Virus record (IMG/VR): IMGVR_UViG_3300037117_000082
Coordinates: 1-64,000 of that record
Strand: one strand, 5' to 3'
Source of the DNA: a virus
Taxonomy: Duplodnaviria; Caudoviricetes
Length of the DNA: 64,000 nucleotides
How positions within the stretch are numbered: the first letter of the stretch is position 1; each line of letters opens with the position of its first letter. The notes beneath the pieces were generated by a model. It worked only from the letters and a program-made list of their open reading frames with translations. It ran no database searches and had not been told where the DNA came from. Below are positions 3,459 to 25,170 of this stretch, one piece after another. The translations under genes were made by a program, and so were the position numbers.

Positions 3459-6336
3459 TCAGGAATAAGGCGTAACGTCACTAACCTGGAGTCCCTGGAG
3501 CAAACCGGAGAAGAACGGTGCGTTCGCGATCAATGCCCCATACCAGAAGATGCTGAACCTAAAGGTCGCATCTATGACAGGCCAGGCGATACTGGCGTAA
3601 TCTTGCACCATTCGGGCTTCCCAGGCATTGCTGATCTGGGAGTAGGTCATCGGCGGCTGGTAGGTCATGAAGGCCGCCGTGCCCTGCGTGAACCAGGGGT
3701 GGACGACCAGCTTGAGGATGGAGCGGGTGATCGGGTTCTGGAACTCGCTGACGGCGCCGCCGACGCGCATTCCCCCGACATCCTGCTGCTCCAGGAACAG
3801 GCGGTAGTTCGTCGCCGTCCCCGCCGAGATCACGTCGTTGGACAGGCGCATGATGTCGCCGCCGTCGCCGACGATCTCCTGCGGGTCCGCCTTGAACGCG
3901 CCCGGACTCGTGGTGTTGGACTCCCACAAGGCGTCCAGCGCCGTGTAGATGGCGTTGTAGGACAGGTGGGTGCCCACGGACTGGTTGACGTAGCCGCCCT
4001 GCCAGCCCGCCGGGTAGACCCCGGCTGCGGCAGACGCGCCGGAAAGCGTCGGGATGACGCCCTCCATCCGGGTGTTCTTCCCGGTGCCGGTGTCAGTCGC
4101 CGGCGGGACAACGGCGCTCGGCAGGGACGCGAAGCCCTGGAGGGTGTACTTCGTTCCGCCGACGCCCGATGCCAGCAGGTAGTAGCTGGTAGCGGACGTG
4201 TAGCCGTAGATGCTGTACGTCATCGCGCCCGCGGACGGGGCGATCGTGACATCCACGACCTGGCCGGAAGCCACGGCGAACGTGGACGACGCGGCCGAGA
4301 CGGCGGTGGAGCCGAAGTAGTTGGTCGCGGCCACCTTGACCGCGGTGAGGTTGGTGTTGAGCGCCGTCTCGTTGGAGCCGGCGGTGCGGACGGCGCAGGT
4401 CGGTGCTGCGGGAACGGCCAGCGGAGCCGAGGTTCCGGCGATGAACTGGTACTCCTCGCCGAGCATGGCCTCCTGAAGCATGATCAGGTTGGCCAGGCCG
4501 GCAATGTCCTCGAAGCCCTGCCCTGCGAACTGCGCGAGCCACGAAAGCTGCTCGCTGATGCCGAAGAAGCGGTACGGAACATTCCAGTCGTTGTTACTCG
4601 CCGCCAGAGGCGGCGGGGCTAGTCGTTTCCGCTAGCCTCCTGCGCTCTCACGCAGGCTCGGACTCGATCATGATCTGAACTTATGCAGCGACCGGCAGGC
4701 CAAGCTTCCTGGCCATATGCTGCCGGCGCCTAGTCAGGTCCAGCTCGCCTAGCAGGCGAGCGCCCTTCCATCGATTACATGTGCTGTGTGCAGGCAGGAT
4801 GTTGCCGGCAGTGTGCGTGCCGCCCCTCGCCAGCGGGATGACATGGTCGAAATCCATCGCATCGGCGGAAGGTATCTCCAGCGTGCAGATGTGACAGACC
4901 ATGCCGTGCTCGGCGAGCAGGGCCTCCAGGTCCACGCGCTCGGTCCTGGTGGTCCGCTTCTGAGCTTTCCGGCGCCGGACGAAGCCCTTGTAGAGCGCGG
5001 GGCGCTTCGCGTACTTCTGCCGCCCGTAGGCGCGAACGGCGTCCGGGTCCCGGGCCATCGCGTCATCCCGGTTGCGCTTGACGACTGCATGGAAGCAGTC
5101 GTTGCAGGTCCGGGCAAGCCAGACGCGATCGCCGGTCTTGTTCGGCGCCGGCCGGAAGAACTCGATGGTTAGCGGCTTCGGCTCTCCGCAGTCCCGGCAA
5201 ACCCGAAACAGTTCGGGCGGTGCCTGGCAGGCGAGAGAGCAGAACCGGCGCCCCGTGTAGTCACGGAACTCCTTGCCGCATGAGCAGCGGACTATCTGGC
5301 CGCCTTTGCGGTAGGCGCTAGCGTAAGCCGTCGTCCAGGCACGGCATTTGTCACACAACCTGGCGCCGCCGCGCGGCCCCATCGTTGCTGGCTGCTTCTC
5401 GCACCTGATGCACAACACATGTTTATCGTACTAGTGTTCAGACCCCGCGTGCAGAGTCTCTGAACCTTTCCCGTGGGCGTGTTGCCTTTAGGGACTCGGC
5501 TGCTGATTGCCCCTCTGTGCTGCTTGCTTTTTGAACCATCACGCTCGGGCTTTCGCCCCACGTTGTGGTGCAAGCAGGTGGCTCGGGTATTCCAGCAATT
5601 CTCGCGGTTTGCACTCACCCGTCACCGGATGAGGTCCCAATCAGTTCAGGAAGACCTCGGTCTGACTGCCCGAGGGAGGCAGGTTGAGAGGCCAGTTCGA
5701 GAACGTACCGCCGCTCTGAACCAGCTCGGTGATGGAGACGTCGAGGACGCCCTGGCCGCCGGTCTGGCTGCCAGAGATGCCGGTGATGACCCGTTCCTGC
5801 GCACTCGTGCCCTGGCCCTGGGGCCGGGGAAACTTGTTGCGGAAAACGGTATAAACCGGATAGATCAGACGACTCGGGCGCATGAGATCAAACGGCACCA
5901 ACCCGTACACACTGCCCACGCCGAGGTTCCCGGCCGTGAAGTTCTTGAACGCCTCGCTGCCGCCGGGCATGCCGGCGAAGACACCCGACAGGGTGTCCAT
6001 CAGCGAAGGCGCGGTCAGGGCCGTCTTCAGGTACCCGAACTGGTTCAGGAACCCCTGGTTCATGCCCTTGACCACGGCGGGCTTGTCGTTGATGCCGTTC
6101 CAGGTTGACTGCCGCAGGTCGATAGCGGCCTGGCTGGCCTTGGTCATGATCTGGATCTCGTCGGTGAGGGGGGCGTTGCCGAGTCCGGCGTAGCCCGCTC
6201 CCTTGACGAGGTTGGGGAGCCGGGCCTTCAGCATCTCTCCCGTGCGGGAGAACTGCTGGACGTTGCCGGCTACCTCGGCGCCCGTGGGGCTGAGCTGGTC
6301 AGCCGGGGCGATTGTTGCTTCGAGAATGTCTGCCAT
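3459..6336 (-). CDS. major capsid protein, intron-split (exon 1 about 6336-5648, exon 2 about 4584-3459; about 604 aa spliced)
   Basis: Follows the protease, AAGGAG RBS. Exon 1 ends ...SGSQTEV; exon 2 frame is open upstream of the tracked ORF (NVPYRFFGISEQLSWLAQFAG...MLQEAMLGEE). Removing 1063 nt restores the frame. Confidence 0.85.
4585..5651 (-). ncRNA. group I self-splicing intron with HNH ORF in the P8 loop
   Basis: P AATTGCTGGAA (5600-5590), Q AATCAGCAGCC (5508-5498), R GTTCAGAGACTC (5465-5454), S ATGATCGAGTCC (4671-4660). P7 G(A)GACTC/GAGTCC, P3 CCGCG/CGCGG, P8 GTCTGAAC/GTTCAGAT flanking the ORF, GNRA-capped P2. Splice sites are ambiguous by 4 nt. Confidence 0.92.
4681..5418 (-). CDS. 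intron-encoded HNH homing endonuclease
   Basis: CHIC...DFDHVIPLARGGTHTAGNILPAHSTCNRWKG; several N-terminal CxxC Zn ribbons. Confidence 0.9.
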   Translation of the reverse strand: MLCIRCEKQPATMGPRGGARLCDKCRAWTTAYASAYRKGGQIVRCSCGKEFRDYTGRRFCSLACQAPPELFRVCRDCGEPKPLTIEFFRPAPNKTGDRVWLARTCNDCFHAVVKRNRDDAMARDPDAVRAYGRQKYAKRPALYKGFVRRRKAQKRTTRTERVDLEALLAEHGMVCHICTLEIPSADAMDFDHVIPLARGGTHTAGNILPAHSTCNRWKGARLLGELDLTRRRQHMARKLGLPVAA

Positions 6337-7185: not shown

Positions 7186-9945
7186 TTACCGCACGCCGCC
7201 CGCGACATTCAGCAGCCTGGTCAGCTCCTGCCACGCGACTTCGCGCTTGCCGGGGTCCGGGTCGTTGCGGGCCTGGTGCTGGAGGTCCCGGATGAGGGAT
7301 TCCTGCACGTTGCTGGCTGCCTTCTCCACGGCGCTCCGCTCGGGGACCGCCGGGGATGGCTGCATGGCCTTCGGGCGCACCCCGCCTGCGCCTACGGCCT
7401 TGAAGGGGGCGTAGCGGGGGTCAGGGGCAGAGGCCATCTGGTCGATGAGCTCTCCCTGCTGCTCAAGCTTCGCGGCAAGGGGGGCGACGGCCTTCTCGAC
7501 GGCTGCCTGCAGCGCCGCGGCGTCCAGCGACGGGACGGGCAGGGCAGCGACGACGGGAAGCGGGTCCGCTGCCTTGGCCGCCATGTCGCCCTTCACGGGC
7601 ATCTTGTCGCCGCAGCCGGGGCAGAACTTGCCGGGCCGTGCCTTCTTGCCGCACTTGCAGTCCATCTTGGCCGGCTTGCCCGGCGCGGCTGCCTTGGTGA
7701 CGGGCAGGTCGCCCTCGTACTGGACGCCCGTGGTCTCCCCGGACGCGCCGTCTGCCTTCCGGGCTCCCGGCACCGGGACGGGGCGCGCGCCAGCGGGCGG
7801 CTGCCCGCCGTGACCGGGCCCGTGCATGGGGCACAGGTCAGGGAACGTTCCCGCAATGTGGTCGTGCATGGACGCCATCGCGGACCTGGCGCCGTCACGG
7901 CTCGTGTTGCGGTAGAACGTCCGCTGCGGCTTCCCCGGCACCGAGGGGACAGCCTGGGAGCCGTTGTCCCCGCCGGGCTCGCTGGAGGCTTCCTGGCCCC
8001 CGGTGAGAGGACCGCGGGTGAAGTCCGTAGCGGAGATGTGCTCAGCGGTGATGGTCATCGGGCTCGCGCCGCTTGCCGCCGTCGTGTTCGACTGGTCCAT
8101 GCCGGACAGGGCCGGGCGGCGGAACGACTGCGGGCGCAGCTCGGACGGGGCCGGGTAGGTGGAAGGGCCGGGGTTCGCGTCGGCGAACGCCTTGTGCGCC
8201 TCCCAGCGCAGGCCGGTGACCGTCTCCGCGTCGGTTCCGGCGATGGTGAGGGCGTCCTGCCAGCGGCGCTGCGCCTTCCCCGCCTCGGCCAGCGGCGCGT
8301 CGATCGCGGCCGACAGGGCCTTCGACTGCCATTCCGCCGGGTCCGCGACCATCGCAAGCGTCTGGCCGGGGTAGGACTTCGCGGTCGCGTCCGGGGAGAA
8401 CGCCGGGCACAGGAAGTCGTGCAGCATCCCCTCGCCCCACGACGCGCCCGCGTTCCTGATGTGCCACGACGCGGCCTCGGAGCCCGCGGTCTTGCCCGTC
8501 TGCGCCATCTCGGCAGCAGGAGGGGCCACAGCGGCCTCGGCTGCCCGCTCGGAGGGCTCGTCCGGGTTGGTGCCCTCCAGGTGCGCGTCGTCCTCGAGCT
8601 GTTCCATCGCCACCCCGTCAGGCTCCCGGTGAGGGGTAACGGGGTCGGTCGGCGCGGAGTCCTTCACGCCATCGGCAGGAGACGGGGACGCGGCCTTGTC
8701 GGCAGCATCGGGCTTGTCGGGGGTCATCTTCTTGCCGCACTTGAAGCAGAACGGGTTCTTCGCGCCGGACTTCTTGCCGCACGACGGGCACGCCATCTTC
8801 GGCTTCGCGGCCTTGTCGGCGACAGGAACGGCGGGCGCGTCATCGGCCGTGGCGGCCTTCTCCGCGTCGTCGGTGAGCGGGTTGGCGACGCCCAGTTCAC
8901 TCGCGCGCTTGGCGATCAGCGCCTTCGCGGCGGTGACGTCACCGTGCCCGGAGCGGGCCAGGATCGCGGCGTTGCCCAGATCCTCCGCGTTGGCGATCGG
9001 ATAGGAACCGTCGCTCAATGCGTGGCCCTTGCCAGCCAGTTCCTTGCGCTCGGCAGCGGACACGTCCCGCTTCCAGATCGCCGACTCGACGGCCTTCAGC
9101 GCGTCGGCCACGGCAACCTCTGCCGCGTCCGTTTCCGCTGCCTTCGGCATGTCCGTGTCATCCGGGGCGTCCATGTCAGCGTCGGATGCCTCGTCCTCCT
9201 GGTCAGCCGCAGCGTTGTCGCCGCCGGCCTCGTCGGCTCCCGCAGCTGCCTTCTGCGCTTCAGCGTCCTCGGCGATCTCCCGGTGCTTCAGCAGCTTCGC
9301 GAGGTCGGACGGGGAGAACGTGAGGGACGCCTTGATCACGTCGGGCTCGTCTGTCTTGGTGGTCGTGCCATCGCCTCCGAGCATCTTGCCGACGAACTCC
9401 GGGCCGCCATCGGCTGCCGCCTTGAACAGCTGGAAAGCAGTGCCGAAGTTGGAACCGCGATCAACGACTGAGATCTCGCCGAGCCCGGTCATGCCGTCCG
9501 CGCGGTCGGTGATGACTCCCCGGACCGCCTTGTGCTCAGGGTCCAGGTGGTTGAAGCGCGGGTCGCCGACGCGGATGTCCGGGTGGCAGATGCCGATGCT
9601 CCAGTCGTTCAGCACCTTGGTGCGGATCTTGTGCTTGGCGTCGGGGTCGGCGATCAGGCCCTTGACGAAGTGGCCGTCGACCTCCAGCCCGCGCCCGACC
9701 GCCTTGCGCGGGTCGTGCTGCATGCGGATGTTGGCCTTGGTGTCGAACCACTTCTTGATCCACCGGAGGCTGGCTTCGGGGTCTACGACCTGAAGATCTC
9801 CGTCGAGGGTGCCATCGGTGACCTTCCCCCAGATCTCTATGTCCGGGGTGCCGTCCACGGGGTTAATCGTCCCCGTGTCCTCTGACTTCGAGATCGGCAT
9901 CGAGAAGTGGACCATCTCGTTGCCGGCGGTCAGTGTGTTCGCCAT
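7186..9945 (-). CDS. HK97-type prohead protease fused to scaffold and Zn-ribbon domains
   Basis: ATG 9945 with GGAGG; NIRMQHD, DWSIG, EISVVDRGSN protease motifs; ERKELAGKGHALSDGSYPI module; two CxxC pairs; many K-A/K-S junctions. Confidence 0.85.
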   Translation of the reverse strand: MANTLTAGNEMVHFSMPISKSEDTGTINPVDGTPDIEIWGKVTDGTLDGDLQVVDPEASLRWIKKWFDTKANIRMQHDPRKAVGRGLEVDGHFVKGLIADPDAKHKIRTKVLNDWSIGICHPDIRVGDPRFNHLDPEHKAVRGVITDRADGMTGLGEISVVDRGSNFGTAFQLFKAAADGGPEFVGKMLGGDGTTTKTDEPDVIKASLTFSPSDLAKLLKHREIAEDAEAQKAAAGADEAGGDNAAADQEDEASDADMDAPDDTDMPKAAETDAAEVAVADALKAVESAIWKRDVSAAERKELAGKGHALSDGSYPIANAEDLGNAAILARSGHGDVTAAKALIAKRASELGVANPLTDDAEKAATADDAPAVPVADKAAKPKMACPSCGKKSGAKNPFCFKCGKKMTPDKPDAADKAASPSPADGVKDSAPTDPVTPHREPDGVAMEQLEDDAHLEGTNPDEPSERAAEAAVAPPAAEMAQTGKTAGSEAASWHIRNAGASWGEGMLHDFLCPAFSPDATAKSYPGQTLAMVADPAEWQSKALSAAIDAPLAEAGKAQRRWQDALTIAGTDAETVTGLRWEAHKAFADANPGPSTYPAPSELRPQSFRRPALSGMDQSNTTAASGASPMTITAEHISATDFTRGPLTGGQEASSEPGGDNGSQAVPSVPGKPQRTFYRNTSRDGARSAMASMHDHIAGTFPDLCPMHGPGHGGQPPAGARPVPVPGARKADGASGETTGVQYEGDLPVTKAAAPGKPAKMDCKCGKKARPGKFCPGCGDKMPVKGDMAAKAADPLPVVAALPVPSLDAAALQAAVEKAVAPLAAKLEQQGELIDQMASAPDPRYAPFKAVGAGGVRPKAMQPSPAVPERSAVEKAASNVQESLIRDLQHQARNDPDPGKREVAWQELTRLLNVAGGVR

Positions 9946-10029
9946 GCACCTCCGGAAAGGGCAGATCGGGTAGACCGCCGTGGCGGCAAGGGGGAGAACG
10001 AAGATCACTAGGGGGGGGATGCGGCGGCG

Positions 10030-11097
10030 TCAGGACAGGTAGAGATAGGCGGTAGTACCTGCAATCAGGTTGCCGCCGCTGACCGTCGCGATTTTGACGG
10101 ACGTGATAGCTGACGTGGACCGCCACGCCACAACCCCGGTCTCGGTGACGCAATCCGCGGTGGCGGCGGCACCGTCAGCGAACCCGGAACGCCAGAAACC
10201 GGTTTTCTGGAAGGTAGTCCCGGTATAGAGGGGGATCGTGATCTCCAGGAGCCCGGCGACCCCGGCCGTCGCCGACGCACCGGGCATATCGCCCACACCG
10301 GTGATGGAGCTGCCAAGCCACCCGGTCTGGCCCGCATGAGCAGCGGCAGAAAGCACGGCGGCGCCGCCGGTCACATGCTCGCCGTCATAATCGGCGTTAG
10401 TGTCCGCGTTGACCACGACGAACCACCGGTCAGACTCGGCCGCAGCCGCCGAGCTGCCGACAACCACGATCCGCAGGAGGCTGTACCCCGAGGGGATGGC
10501 CGAGAACGTGATGTTCGCCGCCGCCGTGCCAAGGGTCTGCGAGGTGACCGGAGTGGACGGGTGGACGTGCCCGGCGTCGGCGGCCTTCCCTGTCGCCCCG
10601 GCGGCGGCGGTTCCGGCGGCCTTGATGTCCCCGGCGGTCCCGTCAAGCTCAACCGCGCCCTGAGCGCTGGTAGTGGCTGCCGGCAGGTCGCCGGAGACGA
10701 TAGTGGCCCACGCGGGAGCGGCGGAAGCGCTCCCGGTACCGGTCTGGGTGAGATACTGCTTCGTCGCCACCGTGCCGCCGGCGAGCCGCGCCGGGGCCGG
10801 GGTGGCGTTCTCGTAGATGATGTCGCCGAGCGTCGTCATCGGGTTAGCGAACCCCGAGGCCGATGCCTGCCAGGTAGCCGCCGAGCCGCTGGTAGCCGTC
10901 AGTACCTGGTTCACTGTCGGCGCCGTAGCTGCCGAGACGACGACGGGCGTCGTCAGGGTGGCCAGCGCGGTCGCGATCCCTGCCGAAACGGGTAGCCCGT
11001 TCTCGTCCACCAATGTGACGGCCTGGACCAGCATCCCAGGCTGAACTTCAACGACCGCGGTAGGCGCTCCCGCGCCCGTGACAAGGCTGCCTGCCAT
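10030..11097 (-). CDS. minor virion/fibre-like protein
   Basis: GGAGG RBS; NPMTTLGDIIY...RL fibre-type repeat; C-terminal ITFSAIPSGY...AITSVKI beta domain. Confidence 0.65.
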   Translation of the reverse strand: MAGSLVTGAGAPTAVVEVQPGMLVQAVTLVDENGLPVSAGIATALATLTTPVVVSAATAPTVNQVLTATSGSAATWQASASGFANPMTTLGDIIYENATPAPARLAGGTVATKQYLTQTGTGSASAAPAWATIVSGDLPAATTSAQGAVELDGTAGDIKAAGTAAAGATGKAADAGHVHPSTPVTSQTLGTAAANITFSAIPSGYSLLRIVVVGSSAAAAESDRWFVVVNADTNADYDGEHVTGGAAVLSAAAHAGQTGWLGSSITGVGDMPGASATAGVAGLLEITIPLYTGTTFQKTGFWRSGFADGAAATADCVTETGVVAWRSTSAITSVKIATVSGGNLIAGTTAYLYLS

Positions 11098-11395: not shown

Positions 11396-13360
11396 TCAGG
11401 CGAGAGTGAGAATGTCGAAGACGCAGGTCGCGCCGTCGGCGGGAGTGGCCGCGCACCAGACCTGCAGGGTTGCCCCGGCCTTCACCACCCACATGCCGCC
11501 CGCGAACAGGGTTGCCGCAGCCGCGTTCACCGGGGTCAGGCTCACCAGGGGAGTCGTCGCGTACGACAGGTTGAACGTGATGATGGCCAGATCCCCGGCA
11601 GAGGTCGCGCTAGCGCCCGTGACGAGCGTGAGGGACATCGCCATGTCATGCCCGGTGATGCTCGCCGAGGCCCCGGACCCGGCGGCGGACTGGACGGCAA
11701 CAGTGGGGGCGCTGCCCTGGGTGACGATGTGGTTGCGGACGAACAGGGGCCCCGTCTGCACGGTCCCGGCACGTCCGAAGAACACGTTCTGCCCTGTCCC
11801 GGAGCCGGTAGCTGCCAGCGTCATCAGCACGGCCGACGACGCGCCGATGTCAGTCCAGACCGCCGTGCCGTCGCTGACCGTACTGCCGTTAGTCGGGAAC
11901 GCCGGCTGGCTGGAGCCTGACGTCCCGGCGGTCGTGCACTGGTAGAGATGGGCGTTGGCCGTTGCCGGGCGCGTCACCTGCCCGGCGGCGTAGGCAAGGG
12001 AAGGCTGCCACGCGAACGCCGTGGAGGGAGTCCACGCCCAGACGATCGAGGTGTTCTGCGGGATGAGCCCGGAGGCGTAGATCCGCTCCCCGATGTCAGC
12101 GGAAGTCCAGGCCGCGGTCAGCGACGTGGCGACATTCGAGCCGCTGATGATGTTCCCGTCCGTGACCTCGGTACCCGGGATTATGTAAGGCGATATAGAC
12201 GGGTAGCCGCCCTGGTACAGGGCAGTCTTCCAGCCGGCCATGTTGCCGTAGTAGTCCTCGCCGTACGCCCCGGTGGAGACGGGGTTGGTGACGACGATGC
12301 CCGGCGTGCGCAGGGTGCTGCGGGAATCGGCAACCGACTGCCGGCCGGCGCTGATCACCGCGTTGCGCTGCGCCGTGGGGTCGAACAGCAGCGGGATGGT
12401 CACAGAGGAGAAACCCTCGATGACCTGATTCTCGGCCGAGTTGGCGTCCAGGCAGATGTAGCCGAGGGAGGCGGTGCCGGGATCGAAAAGGCCGTTCGGC
12501 CCGATGGTGTTCTGCTGGAGATAGGTGCCCTTGATCCCGAACGGGTAGTTCGTGACCTCGATGCAGTTGCCGTAGATGTTGCAGCCCAGCACGGGCAGCG
12601 GGGAAGTGCCGGCCGCCTCGATGCAGGCACCGAGGTACAGGTCCGATCCGCAGGTGGAGGAGACGGTGTTCCCGTAGACCTGGACCCCGTTGGCCGCCGG
12701 GTTCAGCAGGAGCATGCGGCGGATGCCGGTGAAGGAGTTCCGGTAGACGGCCCCGGCGTAGCCCTGGTACTGGGCGGTGTCGCCGGAGCCGGTGCCGGGG
12801 TAGCCGCCGAGCACGATGGCGTCCTGGAAGCAGGACGTGCCCGTGGCCGACCCGGCGAAGGCGTTGTCGTGGATGTTCGGGACCGGGTTAGTGGACTGGT
12901 AGAACGGCACCGGGGAGCCGCCGGAGTCCTGGAACAGGATGCCGCTGATCTCGACTGACCCGGAGTGCTGGAAGTCCATCCTGGCCGCGCCCGCGCCCGC
13001 ATACGACATGGAGACCGTAGTCGCGCCGCCGAAGTACGGGCCGTCATCCGCGATTGCCCCGGCGCCGGTGATCGCCAGCGGCGTGATAACCCCGGCACTG
13101 TAAGTCGTGGCCCACTGGTCAGCGAAGCTGTAAGCGCGCGGCGAGAGCACGATTGTCCCGCCCGCCGGCGAGGCGCCGAAAACGGCGGCGAGGGCACTCG
13201 CCATCTTCTGGTCGTCGGTACCGGTGTAGTCATCCAGGTAGTAGGCGCCCGGTACTGACTGCCCGGCAGGCCCTGGCAGTCCTCCTGGTGAGATGGTTAC
13301 CCCGGCCTGCCCGTTCCCGGCAGGGGAAACGATGAGGGAAGCGGAGTACGGGGTGCTCAC
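11396..13360 (-). CDS. spike/fibre protein with beta-helix and CBM-like module
   Basis: GTDD...LAA...GGTIVL beta-helix start, Asn-ladder repeats, AWQPSLAYAAGQV...YQCTTAGTSG module. Confidence 0.65.
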   Translation of the reverse strand: MSTPYSASLIVSPAGNGQAGVTISPGGLPGPAGQSVPGAYYLDDYTGTDDQKMASALAAVFGASPAGGTIVLSPRAYSFADQWATTYSAGVITPLAITGAGAIADDGPYFGGATTVSMSYAGAGAARMDFQHSGSVEISGILFQDSGGSPVPFYQSTNPVPNIHDNAFAGSATGTSCFQDAIVLGGYPGTGSGDTAQYQGYAGAVYRNSFTGIRRMLLLNPAANGVQVYGNTVSSTCGSDLYLGACIEAAGTSPLPVLGCNIYGNCIEVTNYPFGIKGTYLQQNTIGPNGLFDPGTASLGYICLDANSAENQVIEGFSSVTIPLLFDPTAQRNAVISAGRQSVADSRSTLRTPGIVVTNPVSTGAYGEDYYGNMAGWKTALYQGGYPSISPYIIPGTEVTDGNIISGSNVATSLTAAWTSADIGERIYASGLIPQNTSIVWAWTPSTAFAWQPSLAYAAGQVTRPATANAHLYQCTTAGTSGSSQPAFPTNGSTVSDGTAVWTDIGASSAVLMTLAATGSGTGQNVFFGRAGTVQTGPLFVRNHIVTQGSAPTVAVQSAAGSGASASITGHDMAMSLTLVTGASATSAGDLAIITFNLSYATTPLVSLTPVNAAAATLFAGGMWVVKAGATLQVWCAATPADGATCVFDILTLA

Positions 13361-13773: not shown

Positions 13774-16700
13774 CTACCCGTCATGCGTGGCCCGGAGGTG
13801 TTCCCATTCCTCGTGCGTGCGCTCGCTGGCAGCCGCTACCTCTGGCGTGACGTGACGGTGCGGTCCCCATTCCAGGTTCCCGTGCCGCCAGCGCTCCACC
13901 GCCGCGACCGCCATCGCGATGGCCTCGCTTTCCGGGACGCCGTGGTCGCGCTCGATCGCCGCCGCGATGTTTTGCACGTATGCGGGCAACTGCTGACGTT
14001 CCGGCACCTTCTTGCTCGGCGTGTGCCACAGTCCCTCATGCCCGAGCGGGTGATGCACGGTGGACAGGTACGGGGTGGCGGCCGACTTGCCGACATCGCC
14101 GAAGGGGAAGTGCTTCACGTCCTCGCCGCGATGCACGCTCAGGTGAGTGAAAGTCACCGGCATGTGCGGCAGGGGGTCCGGCAGCGGGTCGCCTTCTTCG
14201 AGGTACGCGATAGTGCAGTGCGGCTTGTAGCCGTGCTCGCGTGCCTTCGCGTCCGGTGACTGGAGTTCAGCCAGCGCCTCATGCAGCGACTCGGCACCGG
14301 GCAGGTTCACGCCAGCCCAGACCGGCACCCCGTCATCACCGGCAGGGAACGAGCCGATGCCGCCGATGGTCCCGGACAGCGGCTGCGTGGCCGCCGCTAC
14401 CCTGCGCGCCATGACGCACGCGAGGCTGAATGCGTCATCATCCACGTCCGGGCCAAGGTAAACCACGGTCACATGGTGATCAGTGATACCGCCCGGCAGG
14501 GGCTCGATCAGCCCTTCCGGCAGGTCCAGGGAGATCATGCCCGACCGCTTGCTGAGGCTGTAGCCGCGCGCCTCTTTCGGTGCGTCCTGGCCCCGCAGGT
14601 CATACGGCGCGAGGCCGTGCACCGAGCCGTCGCCGAGGTTCGCCGCCGTGAAGTTCTTCGTGGAGCGCCCGTCGTCGCCCGCGCCCGGCTTCTGGTCGCT
14701 GAATTGCGAGCTGTGAGTTTCCTCGGCCAGCTTCGCGCCTGCTGCAGTGACCTTGCCCACGTAGGCGACGACGGGACGATCTAGTTCCCTGAACGCGAGG
14801 GCACGGTGATGCCCGTCGATCACGATCAGGTGCGTTCCGGGCTTCGTGTCCGGCCGGTCGATGAGGACGGCCGGCTTGACCGGCCGGCCTGCCGCCTGCC
14901 GGCGCTCGATCTTGGCCTTGAAGCGATCGACCTTGGCGTCCTCGTGGCCGGCCTGCCACTTGTCCGGGGTGTACTCGATCGCGCTGAGCGGGACCTCTTG
15001 CGGGCCGGTCCAGGTAGCGTCCTTTACCCAGGTCAGCGCCGAGGCGGGGTAGTCCTCCAGCAGTTGCGCGTAGACCTGCTCAGCGACAGGGAGAGACGTG
15101 TCCGGGTGCTTCCAGGGTTTGTCGGCCTTGGTAAGGTGCACTGCGGCCGGGGTTCCGTAGGTTGCGGGTTCGAGTCCCGCCTCGCCATCCATGGTTGGCG
15201 GGTAGCTCAATGGGCCCCCATGGACGGGTCCTTGGTAGAGCAGCGGAGCCCCGGCCGCCTTCGCAGTCCCCGGCGCGGGAGGCGCAACACCCTGCTTCGG
15301 CGGATCGCTCGGAGCCAGCCAGCAACGACATCCTGGATGCTGGCACGGCTGGGCGACCCCGCCGGGGAACAGGCTCCCCAGCGGAACCGGGCCGGCGTCC
15401 TGGTTGGCCATGCAGCGGGCGCAGACCCTTGAGTCGTTACGGGTGTGCCAGCGGACGTAACTCACGCCTAGCTCGGTGTAGACCCCGAAGGCCCCGTCCG
15501 CGATGGCCTTCTCGATCTCCGTCAGGGCGATCAGCCCGGCGCGGTTCTCAGCGTTAAGGAACGCATCCAGCAGCGCCAGCAGCGCCCCAACGGTGACCGC
15601 GCCGCCGAGGAGCAGCTTCATGAGCGCGACGGTGAACCCGGCGAGCCCGGTGCCGGCCATCTGCCTTACCGCGGCCTGCTGAGCGATCTGGGACGTGTCC
15701 GCCTGCTGCGCCGCCGCGATCCCCTGCCGCTGCCGTGCGGAGGCTCCTGCTGCCTGCATGGCCGCTGCCCGGCCCAGTTCCCGGCCCTCCGCGTGCAAGG
15801 GGGCCAGGATGAGCGCGAGCCGTTGCCGGATCAGGTCCGCGATCATCGACGCGAGAACCGCCGCCGTGACGGCGAGGGTTCCGGCGAGGAACGCCGCGAA
15901 CAGCTTTCCCGCCTCGGTCATCACCGAGGAGAACGCGGCCCCGATCTGCTGCTCGTACTTGGCCGCTAGCTGGAGGTCGTGCTCCCAGGCGAGCCACGCC
16001 TGCCGCTGCTGGCCGCCGCTAGCGGCCCGCGATTTTGGGAGCGCCCGCCTCGCCTCGGTGAGCACCTCGGCGATGCCTATGCCCTTCGTCACGTCCTCGG
16101 TGATCATGGCCATGACGTGACCGGGGATATGGACCGGCTGCCAGGTAGCGGGGTCGCGGCCCTTCCTGACGTGCCTGCCCAGCGCGTCCAGCTCGCTCAG
16201 CGCGGCCTTGGAGCTGCCGCTGCCGAGGAACGGTGGCGGCCCGCAGTTCGGGCAGCCCTGGACGTGCAGGGCCTGATCCCGGAACACTTCCTCGCACCAG
16301 GGAGATCCCTTTGCCTCGGCCTCGGGCACCCGGTAGCCATCGCAGCGGTAGCACTCGTGGCCCGTCTCGTGCTCGCCGGCGCCGCCGCAGCAGGCACAGG
16401 GCGCGAGGGCAGCCAGGGCTTCCTTGCTCAGCGACGCGGCGTCCGGCGCGGTCAGGATCTCCGCGAGGACATGATCCGCCGGCCTTGGGGCGGCAGGCTC
16501 CGCGATGGCCTTGAGCATCATCCGCGACCCGATCGCCGTCACCGCGTGGGCGGCGTAGCTGCGGGGCAGGCTGCATTTCACGCACGCGGACTGGTCACCG
16601 GGGACGTACGGCTCGTAACGGTGCAGCCCGTCCGGGTCGCTCGCTGCCGCCTTCGAGGACGAGCCCGAGACCGCCGCCGCTGCCTCCGCCGCTCCCGCGA

Positions 16701-18414
16701 TCGCCGCCGAATGCGACGGTGTCGGGTCACGGTCCGGCTGAGCCGGGGGGACATGCGTGGTGCCCGGCATGTGCCCCTGCGCCAGCGCGGGCCTGCCGCT
16801 GACCTGTCCCTCGTTCGCGCCGGGTGATCCGCCGGCGGAGCCGCCCTGCGCGCCCTGCATCTGCTGCGTCACCGATGGCAGCCCGGCGAGCTGCCCGCCC
16901 GGCTGGCCCGTCGCCGGGTCCACGGAGCCCAGCAGCATGACCCCGTTCGCGGATGCCCACAGCGGGTCCTGGGTGACGGGCAGGCCCCACGGGTCCAGGC
17001 CCAGGACGCCACGGCCCTCGTCCACCGAACGCAGGCCGGTGCCGATCTGCGTTCCCAGCAGGCCCGTCAGGGAGACCTCGTCCTCGTCCTCTTCCAGGCC
17101 CTCGAACAGGAACTGCATGTCCGTCTGCCCGCAGGCAACCTGGATGACCTTGTCCAGCAGTCCCTGCTTGAGGAACTGGAGCATCGGGACGAGGGACTTG
17201 CGCTGGTGGCGCGCGGCATCGGCCTTGCTGGCCTGGTTCATCGCGCTAGGACTTTGAACCGTAGCAACCTGGGGCATCAGGCCCAGTTCGGTAGGCTGGA
17301 CCTGAAATGCCATGCAGACCTCAGTTGACACGATCATGTCGAACTGGTCCGCCAGCTCGGGCGGCTTCTGCGGCATCACCTTGGAGCCAGGGGGGAGCAC
17401 GACGATCTGGTGCTTCATCCCCACGTCGCCGGCGATGACGTTCAATGCCGTTTCCAGATCGCGGATCTGGGATGCCGTCATGGCCGCGTCGCCGGGGGAG
17501 ACGAACAGGCCGGGGATGCTTCCCGAGCGGTAGTAGTCGAGCTGGTAGCCCTGCTTGGAGAGCCCGGACATTACCGGGACAAGGGCCTGCTCAATGGGCG
17601 GGCTGCCGTAGGGCCGGTTCGCCGCGCGGGTGTACGGCAGGTAGAGGAGCTGGTCGCCGCGGTAGTCCTGCACCTTGGTTTTCCGCAGGTCATCCGACAG
17701 GTCCGCGTCGCACATGATCGAAATGTTGTCCGTGCGCGGAATGCCGTAAATGTACTGTTCGTAGGCTGGCGAGGGGGGTGTCGGGCGCGATCCGTGCAAA
17801 TCGACCAAAGGCCGGAAACTGGACCCGTCGATGATCTCTAGCGCCGACAGGTCAGACCCCATGAGGCCGCGCCCGCGCACCCTTGACGGACGTAGGTACA
17901 CGCTTGCGGCGTCAATGGCGTATATGTCCTCCAGGAGGGTATCCAGCCAAGACGACCACGAGCCGTACTCAGGGTCCGGGTTCTTGAAGAACCTGATGCA
18001 CTCGCTGCGGCGCTCCCCGAAGTCCCGCATGGCCTTGTGATCGCCGCGCATCGCCTTCGCCGCGTCCTTCGTGGGAACAATGTCCCACTCCAGGGCGCGG
18101 ATTTCGGACTTGAGTAGCTGGATGCAGGCCCGCGCGACCGAGTAGAGCTGCGCGAGTGACCGCAAGGTGCCGAAATCGGTAAGAGTGACACCTTCGGTAC
18201 GAGGCAGTGATCTGGGTATATTCCACCCGAAAGGGTACTGCCAGCGTCGCGGCATCGGCCGGTCGAAGCCATCCGGCGGCTGGTCGATCGGGATCGGGTC
18301 AAGGGGCGAGAGCGGGCCGAACGAGCCGTCAGTGAAGTCCGCGGCCGGGCGCGGGAGGGCGGACCCGTAGCCGCCTCCCCAGGCGTCGCCCATCGCGGCA
18401 ACGGCGGGAGACAT
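13774..18414 (-). CDS. portal polyprotein: portal + MuF minor head + ParB-like + 2H phosphoesterase + C-terminal domain
   Basis: Portal (VARACIQ, YGSPPIEQ, VCMAFQVQPTELG, VDEGRGVLGLDP); MuF (WHTRNDSRVCARC...QHPGCRC); VIDGHHR; HVT/HCT 2H motifs; LPAYVQNIA...AVERW domain. Confidence 0.88.
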   Translation of the reverse strand: MSPAVAAMGDAWGGGYGSALPRPAADFTDGSFGPLSPLDPIPIDQPPDGFDRPMPRRWQYPFGWNIPRSLPRTEGVTLTDFGTLRSLAQLYSVARACIQLLKSEIRALEWDIVPTKDAAKAMRGDHKAMRDFGERRSECIRFFKNPDPEYGSWSSWLDTLLEDIYAIDAASVYLRPSRVRGRGLMGSDLSALEIIDGSSFRPLVDLHGSRPTPPSPAYEQYIYGIPRTDNISIMCDADLSDDLRKTKVQDYRGDQLLYLPYTRAANRPYGSPPIEQALVPVMSGLSKQGYQLDYYRSGSIPGLFVSPGDAAMTASQIRDLETALNVIAGDVGMKHQIVVLPPGSKVMPQKPPELADQFDMIVSTEVCMAFQVQPTELGLMPQVATVQSPSAMNQASKADAARHQRKSLVPMLQFLKQGLLDKVIQVACGQTDMQFLFEGLEEDEDEVSLTGLLGTQIGTGLRSVDEGRGVLGLDPWGLPVTQDPLWASANGVMLLGSVDPATGQPGGQLAGLPSVTQQMQGAQGGSAGGSPGANEGQVSGRPALAQGHMPGTTHVPPAQPDRDPTPSHSAAIAGAAEAAAAVSGSSSKAAASDPDGLHRYEPYVPGDQSACVKCSLPRSYAAHAVTAIGSRMMLKAIAEPAAPRPADHVLAEILTAPDAASLSKEALAALAPCACCGGAGEHETGHECYRCDGYRVPEAEAKGSPWCEEVFRDQALHVQGCPNCGPPPFLGSGSSKAALSELDALGRHVRKGRDPATWQPVHIPGHVMAMITEDVTKGIGIAEVLTEARRALPKSRAASGGQQRQAWLAWEHDLQLAAKYEQQIGAAFSSVMTEAGKLFAAFLAGTLAVTAAVLASMIADLIRQRLALILAPLHAEGRELGRAAAMQAAGASARQRQGIAAAQQADTSQIAQQAAVRQMAGTGLAGFTVALMKLLLGGAVTVGALLALLDAFLNAENRAGLIALTEIEKAIADGAFGVYTELGVSYVRWHTRNDSRVCARCMANQDAGPVPLGSLFPGGVAQPCQHPGCRCWLAPSDPPKQGVAPPAPGTAKAAGAPLLYQGPVHGGPLSYPPTMDGEAGLEPATYGTPAAVHLTKADKPWKHPDTSLPVAEQVYAQLLEDYPASALTWVKDATWTGPQEVPLSAIEYTPDKWQAGHEDAKVDRFKAKIERRQAAGRPVKPAVLIDRPDTKPGTHLIVIDGHHRALAFRELDRPVVAYVGKVTAAGAKLAEETHSSQFSDQKPGAGDDGRSTKNFTAANLGDGSVHGLAPYDLRGQDAPKEARGYSLSKRSGMISLDLPEGLIEPLPGGITDHHVTVVYLGPDVDDDAFSLACVMARRVAAATQPLSGTIGGIGSFPAGDDGVPVWAGVNLPGAESLHEALAELQSPDAKAREHGYKPHCTIAYLEEGDPLPDPLPHMPVTFTHLSVHRGEDVKHFPFGDVGKSAATPYLSTVHHPLGHEGLWHTPSKKVPERQQLPAYVQNIAAAIERDHGVPESEAIAMAVAAVERWRHGNLEWGPHRHVTPEVAAASERTHEEWEHLRATHDG
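15143..15258 (+). ncRNA. circularly permuted tRNA-like RNA (YrlA/Y-RNA-like topology), antisense within portal gene
   Basis: 16-bp closing stem 15143-58/15243-58; T arm GCGGG-TTCGAGT-CCCGC; acceptor CTCGCCA/TGGCGGG closed by a loop; D arm TA-GCTC-AAT..TTGGTA-GAGC. Confidence 0.7.
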
Positions 18415-23535: not shown

Positions 23536-25170
23536 TCAGGCAGCGATTTCCCCGCAGTCCGGGCACTTGCCGAGCCGCGCCATGTACGCCTTGCCGCAGT
23601 CACACCGAGTTACCCCGTAAGCGTCCAGCCATGTCGTACCATCCGATACGAGGGCAAATACCACAGCGTCGCCGTCGTCGGTGGACCGGCCGATCCGCTT
23701 GCGGATCTCCTTCTTGGACTCGACCTTGATCCGCGCGCCGGACTCCACCTTGGACTTGGGGGCGCACAGGTCACCGATCAGGAGATCATCATCGGGCAGG
23801 CACAGGTCCGGGTCGTTACGGGGGTCAAGCGCCTCGCGCAGCTTCCACCAGGCATAACTCCGGAAATCCGAGAAACGGTACTCGCCCGAGACATCCCTGC
23901 GCTGGCCTGCGCTCTTGGCTGCGGTGAACGGCTCGGCTTTCGCTTTCTGCTCGCGGAGCCGGTCGTACACGCCCTTGCCGATGCCGTCCGAGTCCACCAC
24001 GGCGGTGCACTCCGGATCGGCATCGAGGATGCCCTTGATCCGCCCCGTCGTCTGCATGGTGTCCTGCTTGCCGAACTTCCGCAGTTCCGTGACCACGGGA
24101 CCCCTGCGGATCGCCAGCACCGTCATGTCCGATCCCTCGCCGGCGATGTCCGCGCCGAGGGAATGCGGGCCGGGCAGATCAGGCTTGCCGGCGTCCTCCC
24201 AGGCGTGCCAGCGCTGGACCGCTGCCTCAACCCACGCCAGCGGGATCACGGCATCGTCGTCGGCCGCGTGGAACTCGCCGAGGACGTGGCACTGGACGAA
24301 CTGGGATGTCAGGCCGTACTGCTTGATGCGCTGGTCAGCCCACTTGCGGCTGATCTGCCCTGCCGCTACCGCCTCGTCCAGGGTGACGTGGCGGGCGGTC
24401 CAGTCCTCCAGGCCCTCACGGCGGGAGTGGATGTCGTAGAACCGGCCCTGCGGGTCACCCGGCGTCGACAAAGCGAGCGCGAGGGCCTCGCCGCCGCCGG
24501 ACAGGGCGCCCTCGATCGCATCCCATGTCGTCGCCGGGATGAGCTTCGCCTCATCGAACATGATCAGGATCGCGCTCGCGTGCGCGCCCTCGATCTTCGC
24601 CGAGTCAGTCGGCGCGGCGGCCAGCGCGAGGCCGTGGGGCAGGCGGAGGGCCTGGCGCATCAGCTCATCGGATTTCGGCGGCCTGCCATCACGGACGATG
24701 TCCCAGCGGATCAGGCCGGCCCACTTGTGGACCTCGGGCCAGAAGTAGTTCTTCAGCTGCTGCCACGCCCCGGCGGTGGTGACGATCTTCCAGTCGATGC
24801 CGGCGGCCTCGCGGGTCAGGGCGAACCAGAGGACCGTTATGGACCCGATGCAGCTTTTGCCCAAGCCCCTCGGGCCCCGGACGGCAACGCGCTGCTTCTC
24901 GTCCAGCAGGGTCAGGATCTCGGCCTGGTAGTCCGCCAGGCCCTTGGCGCCTTCCCCGGCTCCCTCGTCCTTGGAGCGGGGAACGGCGCCCCAGTCGATG
25001 CAATTTTCCGCGAACCCCGCTGGATCATGGAGGTACTTGACAACCGACTCGCGGGAGGTTTCCTGACGCCGCGCCAGTGCCTTCGCGTTGAGGGCCAGGA
25101 GGCGGCGGATCTCCGCGTCGATGTCCAGGGGCTCGGGCGGCTCAGCCGGCCGGGTCCTCGCCATCGCCAT
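23536..25170 (-). CDS. terL: terminase large subunit
   Basis: Walker A GPRGLGKS, Walker B LIMFDE, coupling motif LSTP, nuclease GADIAGEGSD, STDDGDA. Confidence 0.92.
   Translation of the reverse strand: MAMARTRPAEPPEPLDIDAEIRRLLALNAKALARRQETSRESVVKYLHDPAGFAENCIDWGAVPRSKDEGAGEGAKGLADYQAEILTLLDEKQRVAVRGPRGLGKSCIGSITVLWFALTREAAGIDWKIVTTAGAWQQLKNYFWPEVHKWAGLIRWDIVRDGRPPKSDELMRQALRLPHGLALAAAPTDSAKIEGAHASAILIMFDEAKLIPATTWDAIEGALSGGGEALALALSTPGDPQGRFYDIHSRREGLEDWTARHVTLDEAVAAGQISRKWADQRIKQYGLTSQFVQCHVLGEFHAADDDAVIPLAWVEAAVQRWHAWEDAGKPDLPGPHSLGADIAGEGSDMTVLAIRRGPVVTELRKFGKQDTMQTTGRIKGILDADPECTAVVDSDGIGKGVYDRLREQKAKAEPFTAAKSAGQRRDVSGEYRFSDFRSYAWWKLREALDPRNDPDLCLPDDDLLIGDLCAPKSKVESGARIKVESKKEIRKRIGRSTDDGDAVVFALVSDGTTWLDAYGVTRCDCGKAYMARLGKCPDCGEIAA

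Follow-up and report, generated by a model that had tools for sequence, protein, structure and literature searches.

As described in excerpts of the papers cited here and below, the HK97 capsid protein is cut at K103/S104, within a flexible segment ahead of the N-arm; cut site and N-arm are both unstructured in Prohead I (PMC10275583). The capsid, scaffold and host L27 substrates of the 80α protease Prp share an extended sequence at their cut sites (PMC5744158), and gp245 of SPN3US acts on 14 sites in 9 substrates, including the portal gp81 and the capsid protein (PMC10052503). For polyvalent proteins, Iyer et al. 2017 expected packaging and delivery and proposed processing as the means of releasing their domains (PMC5512222). 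Here we describe, in an uncultivated actinobacterial phage (IMG/VR record IMGVR_UViG_3300037117_000082), a portal polyprotein with an internal copy of a 21-residue stretch of the phage's own major capsid protein. The window that we analysed is the first 64 kb (64,000 nucleotides) of this complete, 115,040-bp virus record with direct terminal repeats. We propose, with moderate confidence, that the portal segment is an old copy of the capsid maturation junction and that it functions by substrate mimicry, presenting the capsid's probable cleavage site so that the C-terminal cargo of the polyprotein is freed.

The portal copy, KNFTAANLGDGSVHGLAPYDL, comprises residues 1253–1273 of a 1546-aa open reading frame (ORF; 13774..18414, minus strand). 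The capsid copy, KNFTAGNLGVGSVYGLVPFDL, comprises residues 131–151 of a 231-aa ORF (5641..6336, minus strand). The original prediction had noticed a 16-of-21 match to the capsid inside the portal polyprotein, and its coordinates, 14596–14658 and 5884–5946, are correct, with both peptides on the minus strand; the plus strand of 14596–14658 yields an unrelated peptide. In pairwise BLASTP, 16 of the 21 residues are identical and 18 are positive (E 3e-07). The Smith–Waterman score of the pair, 91, was not equalled by any of 1000 shuffled portal sequences (mean 40.2, standard deviation 5.0, maximum 60). A 32-column hidden Markov model (HMM) made from 66 unique capsid-homologue segments and run on the six-frame translation of the window matched only the capsid ORF and the portal ORF, at 63.9 and 32.3 bits, with the next score at 3.5 bits. 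Likewise, capsid exon 1 matched at just these two places across the whole genome. A third copy was sought in the other head proteins of the window and none was found, the one regular-expression match, in a 940-aa protein, being unconvincing. Similarity runs ~10 residues further upstream (PGAGDDGRSTK in the portal, PGG.D..K in capsids) and one residue downstream (DLR); taken in full, the portal copy appears to be about 31 aa long.

At the DNA level the two 21-codon copies agree at 48 of 63 bases. The 16 identical residues share a codon in 10 cases and differ synonymously in 6, including a serine written TCG in one copy and AGT in the other. Both the base differences and the codon differences argue that the portal copy is neither a recent DNA duplication nor an assembly artefact.

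The capsid protein and its profile had no match in Pfam, NCBIfam or PDB sequences, and tblastn of capsid exon 1 found no match among phage records. Its only family match was phrog_13692 ('unknown function'); SU10_MCP was a lead from protein-language-model search (Atlas) only, and tblastn gave 26% identity to the 'major head protein' of Alicyclobacillus phage MMB025 (E 9e-7). We made an AlphaFold2 model of P0016, an intron-free capsid homologue, from 79 diverse sequences. The model reached a predicted local distance difference test score (pLDDT) of 82.2, compared with 45.6 for a shallower, 28-sequence alignment. Foldseek of this model retrieved phage capsids at E values from 4e-12 to 1e-4, and VIA-align Z scores over phage capsids ranged from 20.2 to 14.5 (SPO1 20.2, SU10 18.8); HK97 (1ohg_A) aligned over 257 residues with Z 16.9 and a root-mean-square deviation of 3.2. 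Judged by the model of its homologue, the window protein has the HK97 fold of a major capsid protein and carries a large beta-domain insertion, which upholds the capsid label it was first given.

Within this fold, the motif lies at a junction. Residues 1–130 of the capsid protein are predicted to be helical, the motif itself is low-confidence and flexible (residues 140–158 of the P0016 model have pLDDT <50), and the confident core begins ~20 residues on. The pattern [KR]-S/N-F-T-A-G-N-L-G-I/V-G occurs at residue ~97–143 in 95 of 96 close homologues of more than 560 aa among the matches listed; the 96th has the distal part. Of 79 diverse capsid homologues, down to 23% identity, 72 have K and 6 have R at the position of the motif Lys. 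Around it, P4 is D/E in 54 of the 79 and P3 is L/I in 59, followed by D/S/N at P1′, I/F/W at P2′ and T/S at P3′, and further along G-L-V-P-[FY]-D-L is conserved. The region before the junction is 66–145 aa long in the same homologues and poorly conserved, and mean column conservation goes from ~0.2–0.35 ahead of the motif to ~0.55–0.65 past it. In the structural alignment, model residue 152 corresponds to residue 114 of the HK97 chain, whose first residue is 104, and model residue 149 to T5 residue 168. Linear extrapolation puts HK97 S104 at ~model residue 142, compared with K139/N140 of P0016 (K131/N132 of the window protein), and the first modelled residue of the T5 chain at ~model residue 145. 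On this model-based reckoning the motif Lys would sit within about 1–3 residues of the HK97 K103/S104 maturation cut, in line with the HK97-style cleavage position first suggested for it.

A putative S78-like prohead protease is encoded near the capsid gene, as an N-terminal domain of the 940-aa protein. Pfam Peptidase_S78 (PF04586) matches 38 of 52 homologues of this domain at E<=1 (best 2.2e-5), PF14550 matches 9 of the 52, and an Atlas search pointed to the same family. A His (..QH[DN]..), a Ser (..[WY]S[IV]G..) and an E-x-S-x-V-D motif are invariant in all 52, and we take the invariant His and Ser to be the catalytic residues. A homologous ORF is present in 78 loci and, wherever coordinates were compared, lies just upstream of the capsid gene. 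The rest of the 940-aa protein (~700 aa), acidic and Ala/Asp/Glu-rich with two zinc-ribbon-like CxxC...CxxC pairs, is probably a scaffold. Past the protease domain, a Lys in ..LVK-[SA]A.DG.. is shared by 48 of 52 sequences and might mark autoprocessing; since its surroundings are conserved as well, we set it aside as evidence.

Together, these elements suggest how substrate mimicry could operate. The S78-type protease would cut the capsid protein after K131 and, recognising the copied sequence, would do likewise after K1253 of the portal polyprotein. The second cut would free the 2H phosphoesterase and the C-terminal module (NUDIX in relatives) inside the procapsid, and the freed cargo could then leave with the DNA. 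The motif is kept ahead of both cargo types, 2H and NUDIX. The original prediction had the cargo borrow the capsid's cleavage site or N-arm for release or docking inside the shell, as a packaging tag. Its cleavage-site part is plausible; the packaging tag is unsupported, and unneeded for cargo that the portal protein already carries by covalent fusion.

The architecture of the polyprotein gives this reading its setting. Its portal domain is clear (Phage_portal 43.7 bits against a cutoff of 39.1; phrog_2662 portal, E 6.6e-55), as is the 2H domain (2_5_RNA_ligase2 40.7 bits against a cutoff of 27; HxT at 1314 and 1399), and Phage_Mu_F scores 20.1–21.6 bits, below its cutoff of 29.6. As first proposed, the portal copy is placed between a domain with a DGHHR signature and the 2H domain. 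The 'ParB-like' label originally attached to the former gained no support from Pfam, where the DGHHR region had no match at E<=1; the name goes back to the signature and to one source's name for the homologue P0141. Family scans of the polyprotein detected no metallopeptidase domain. The C-terminal module (~100 aa; 13777–14085, minus strand) starts K-S-[AE]-x-T-P...H-x-P-L-G-x-E-G-L-W, and its only match is a weak one to DUF5631. The K ahead of it is invariant in 29 of 29 unique sequences, whatever precedes. Module junctions in this family end in Lys, and this, like the invariant K, lends the cleavage reading circumstantial support. In some relatives the C-terminal module is in a reading frame separate from the portal ORF.

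In relatives, the portal–MuF–DGHHR core ends at a conserved junction, ETHSSQxHxGxDPxN[KR]. A stop follows within three residues of G.DP.N[KR] in 23 of 78 unique ORFs; the others continue into cargo, which may be a Cys-rich zinc-ribbon-like SKESVNYR...CGTCSMF module, NUDIX, 2H or the C-terminal module directly. The layout of this portal fusion family resembles that of polymorphic toxins. The motif together with RGQ[DE] could be read as a conserved boundary for cargo exchange, comparable to the pre-toxin motifs of polymorphic toxins and with no proteolytic role. Cargo does diverge directly after ...DLRGQ[DE] (2H or NUDIX), and the family's usual boundary, G.DP.N[KR], plays the same role elsewhere. 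Such a boundary leaves its own capsid origin unexplained, and equally the retention of capsid-conserved positions. It is also compatible with cleavage at the same place and hence does not exclude substrate mimicry. As an account without proteolysis, we consider it very unlikely.

Relatives of the phage are metagenomic viral contigs of up to ~135 kb and a few actinobacterial assemblies (Streptomyces, Cellulomonadaceae, Streptosporangiaceae). A search with the C-terminal third of the polyprotein gave 157 portal homologues, and seven of the best 120 carry the motif. The original prediction had named absence from related portals as speaking against it, and such absence is found in part: 113 of the 120 are without the motif, and it occurs in none of the portals of 57 other loci containing the region. 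P0126, of genome L086, has the same 21 residues as the window portal, and the capsid motif of L086 is also the same as that of the window. P0186 again has the same 21 residues, ahead of NUDIX cargo. The copy in P0127 is identical to the window capsid at 20 of 21 positions, and that in P0129, also with NUDIX cargo, to the window portal at 15 of 21. P0201 and P0167 have degenerate copies that keep DPANK-SFTAG...SGL; in these the Lys-side part (K-SFTAG) survives and the distal half decays. Portal copies retain the positions conserved in capsids (K, F, T, G-L-x-P-[FY]-D-L), and all have a portal-specific Asp (G-D-G) in place of the capsids' Ile/Val.

In a midpoint-rooted portal-domain tree of 95 sequences, from which P0186 is absent owing to its truncated portal domain, four of the five strong copies fall in a six-tip clade (support 1.0) and P0127 is basal. 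The weak copies, P0201 and P0167, fall in another clade, of seven tips, whose five other members run from DPxNK straight into 2H. P0167 has the portal-specific ...GQ ending, so the portal copies look related to one another and not separately taken from capsids. The window and L086 are the only genomes with both copies, and each copy is identical between them; the contigs that encode P0186 and P0129 (L087, L088 and L089) stop short of the capsid gene, and no contig for P0127 turned up in the viral or metagenome contig sets. Each portal was also compared with the capsid of its own locus, at the 28 loci where 30 aa or more follow the DGHHR domain; only L086 stood out (score 88), and the runners-up, at 51, 45 and 45, align unconvincingly. 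Mixed-pair controls had a median of 27, a 95th percentile of 44 and a maximum of 97, the last presumably an L086-portal pairing. A pattern match in the metagenome set, DPAKNFTAGNKGDGS (L091 9442–9486, minus strand), lies in a 102-aa ORF whose surroundings show no homology to portals or capsids; we read it as chance or as a very distant junction cassette.

Signs of constraint on the portal motif are modest. Over the 21 codons, the window differs from L087/L089 by three synonymous and no non-synonymous changes, and from L088 by five of each. Against L086 there are 0 differences in 63 bases, with 11 of 30 codons to the left differing. P0129 shares 15 of 21 residues with the window in the motif and 5 of 15 in the left flank; its right flank is unalignable.

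These patterns also bear on a neutral origin, in which illegitimate recombination or homing-endonuclease-associated repair placed a short copied stretch of capsid gene in a permissive linker, where it persists in a clade that is simply young. The rarity of the motif fits this, as do two losses inside the clade that carries it. That strong-motif clade is shallow (16–25% diverged), the motif diverges about as fast as the rest of the protein, and copies other than that in P0127 are 4–6 changes from the window capsid. These phages appear rich in introns, and the capsid frames of L044 and L004 break inside the motif, and that of L078 just after it, at what we read as introns. A neutral piece does not sit easily with flanks that are far more diverged than the motif, as in P0129, none of whose right flank can be aligned. 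Nor does it account for a second portal clade, at ~50% identity, in which a related degenerate cassette also ends in ...GQ; the element is therefore older or mobile, and has been kept. The copy has, in addition, survived a cargo swap, is in frame, and begins exactly at the module junction. We doubt the neutral account on balance. A more specific version, in which the portal copy is a homing footprint, was considered: the window's intron lies 80 codons downstream of the capsid motif, no direct link to the portal copy was found, and we keep the idea within the neutral account.

Several observations weigh against substrate mimicry. Removal of the capsid N-terminal region, a cut after the motif Lys and a cut in the portal copy are all steps that we infer by analogy. 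Because the phage has a separate long scaffold-like protein, the capsid protein does not have to begin with a delta domain that is later removed. The window's own protease domain had no match in Pfam. This domain is mosaic, being 56% identical to that of L048 and 33% to that of L086, otherwise the closest genome; since both motif copies are the same in L086, there is no sign of co-evolution between protease and substrate. Two members of the six-tip clade, P0128 and P0140, are nested in it without the motif, which is thus dispensable; in P0128 the linker from the DGHHR domain to 2H is a short ...SEK-SAGG.... The portal domains of the strong-motif clade are 75–84% identical, and conservation of the motif, at 15–21 of 21, is no higher than that of folded domains. 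Between the window's two copies dN/dS is 0.41, a weak signal from just 21 codons. The general portal junction, D-P-x-N-K, resembles the D-[LI]-x-K of capsids only loosely, the G and N having been forced by the regular expression. Finally, a cleavage site alone leaves the conservation of residues 15–21 past the cut unexplained.

That last point keeps alive a second role for the peptide, as a docking element that mimics the capsid N-arm, whether or not cleavage occurs. Either the cargo or the tether to the portal would fill N-arm sites on the inner shell, and the hexons around the portal vertex, which have no penton neighbour, are candidate places; docking there would position or retain the cargo. 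All 21 residues, including the distal G-L-x-P-[FY]-D-L, are kept in the five strong portal copies, the P0127 copy is nearly the window capsid sequence, and the motif acts as a constant leader ahead of swappable cargo. In HK97 the N-arm occupies inner-surface positions once the scaffold has been removed, according to the excerpt (PMC10275583). Against docking, the tether to the portal already makes targeting unnecessary for packaging, and in the assembled shell the N-arm sites are occupied by the capsid's own N-arms. The distal half is the first to decay in degenerate copies, all portal copies replace the capsid Ile/Val by Asp, and AlphaFold places the motif without confidence even in cis. We regard docking as unlikely. 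The two roles could be combined in a transferable 'capsid N-arm leader': after a cut at K1253/N1254, released enzymes would share the first ~20 residues of the mature capsid protein and dock at N-arm sites. We think this quite unlikely; were it true, it would be a phage counterpart of encapsulin cargo-loading peptides and would join release and placement of injected effectors in one cassette. Substrate mimicry of the capsid junction, with release of the cargo, remains the reading we favour.

The coordinates of the features are collected in Table 1. The capsid gene is interrupted by an insert that matches Rfam Intron_gpI at 27.9 bits (E 7.5e-05), under the gathering score of 50 and over model positions 56–151 only; the ORF inside it has an HNH match in Pfam at 35.9 bits. 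A splice junction with U ending the 5′ exon and G ending the intron is available, and the resulting exon junction, ...EVFLN/VPYRFF..., is the consensus of intron-free homologues, which read through uninterrupted. Other capsid genes have breaks too: the frame is broken inside the motif in L044 (~10373) and L004 (~8782) and just past it in L078 (~3198), probably by intron insertions, judging from the reading frames, and insertions in L043 and L045 come solely from over-long match spans. The portal genes of L043, L044, L057, L060 and L076 give split tblastn matches ~0.7–1.1 kb apart, and Hint and LAGLIDADG (intein) families appear in precomputed Pfam lists of portal homologues.

Elsewhere in the head module, two large Ala/Gly/Thr-rich proteins of no known family, of 654 aa (11396–13360, minus strand) and 355 aa (10030–11097, minus strand), are encoded between the portal and the protease; residues 448–503 of the 654-aa protein have a short match to a head-decoration PHROG. 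A glycosyltransferase (phrog_2170) and a nucleotide-sugar epimerase (phrog_540), encoded at 388–2399 on the strand of the capsid gene and a few genes downstream of it, may modify the virion or the host surface.

Table 1. Positions in the window of the portal and capsid copies of the motif and of the head genes around them.
Feature	Position	Strand	Context or basis
Portal copy of capsid motif, residues 1253–1273; proposed scissile bond K1253/N1254	14596..14658	-	BLASTP, HMM, shuffles
Extended capsid-like segment, residues 1243–1274 (PGAGDDGRSTK + 21 aa + R)	14593..14688	-	Replaces the family's usual HxGxDPxN[KR] junction
Capsid original, residues 131–151; junction of variable helical N-terminal region and HK97-fold core, N-arm start	5884..5946	-	Alignment, model
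940-aa protein; S78-like prohead serine protease domain at ~residues 21–230 (9319–9948)	7186..10008	-	Two genes upstream of capsid gene
Portal polyprotein, 1546 aa: portal 92–472, MuF-like 956–1033 (weak), DGHHR/ParB-like ~1111–1238, motif 1253–1273, 2H phosphoesterase 1314–1418, C-terminal module from K1443/S1444	13774..18414	-	
Major capsid protein exon 1, residues 1–229 and 2 bases of codon 230	5648..6336	-	
Group I-like intron in capsid gene, 1063 nt; HNH endonuclease ORF 4681..5418 inside	4585..5647	-	
Major capsid protein exon 2; spliced product 604 aa	3459..4584	-	Intron-free homologues 599–626 aa
Terminase large subunit	23536..25170	-	Fixes head-module context

If substrate mimicry is right, the pair of copies offers a handle on the specificity of S78-type proteases in a large group of uncultivated soil actinobacterial phages, with a candidate rule of Lys at P1 and, on the P′ side, D/S/N, an aromatic or aliphatic residue, and T/S. 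It predicts two neo-N-termini beginning NFTA, one from the capsid and one from the portal. A portal-fused 'polyvalent' effector would be released via a borrowed capsid junction and not by a peptidase of its own, and the segment would be a compact natural cassette for protease-dependent cargo release inside phage heads. If the reading is wrong, the locus is an example of recombination scattering pieces of structural genes in intron-rich phage genomes.

Compared with known systems, the overall architecture is that of the polyvalent proteins of Iyer et al. 2017, which likewise combine portal, MuF, ParB-like and 2H/NUDIX domains; the excerpt of that work describes release by embedded zincin-like peptidases or autoproteolysis and mentions no capsid-derived junction (PMC5512222). 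With HK97 gp5/gp4, where the delta domain is removed at K103/S104, the locus shares the HK97 fold, a helical N-terminal region and a junction Lys before a flexible N-arm (PMC10275583). An S78-like protease gene in the head module is common to both. Unlike in HK97, the window capsid protein has 604 aa and includes a large beta-domain insertion, the protease continues into a long scaffold-like region, and cleavage is something we infer. The HK97 portal is not a polyprotein and, to our knowledge, carries no copy of the gp5 junction.

The Prp system of 80α is a parallel: several unrelated substrates of one protease carry the same extended cut sequence, a case of substrate mimicry, although there the protease comes from the host and, in the excerpted account, short N-terminal leaders of 13–14 residues are removed (PMC5744158). 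The window copy, by comparison, is internal to a portal fusion, with most of its length on the P′ side, where it would stay attached to the freed cargo. In T4 (gp21), phiKZ (gp175) and SPN3US (gp245), a single prohead protease recognises a short motif common to the capsid protein, the portal and packaged ejection proteins, and trims all of them there; as the excerpt has it, these are consensus sites of 3–5 residues that evolved per substrate, in N-terminal propeptides (PMC10052503). The window shares a literal 21–31 aa with its capsid, ahead of C-terminal cargo.

For docking, the analogues are the capsid-targeting sequences of T4 and the cargo-loading peptides of encapsulins. The latter are also short cargo peptides that bind the inside of an HK97-fold shell, and they differ in being terminal tags on free cargo; we take their likeness to the L-G-I-G-S core of the motif to be superficial. 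A non-exhaustive full-text literature search, supplementary files excluded, returned no capsid junction copied into a portal or MuF fusion. What is unusual here is a literal copy of 21–31 aa of the capsid junction that is internal to a portal fusion and lies mostly on the side that would stay with the released cargo.

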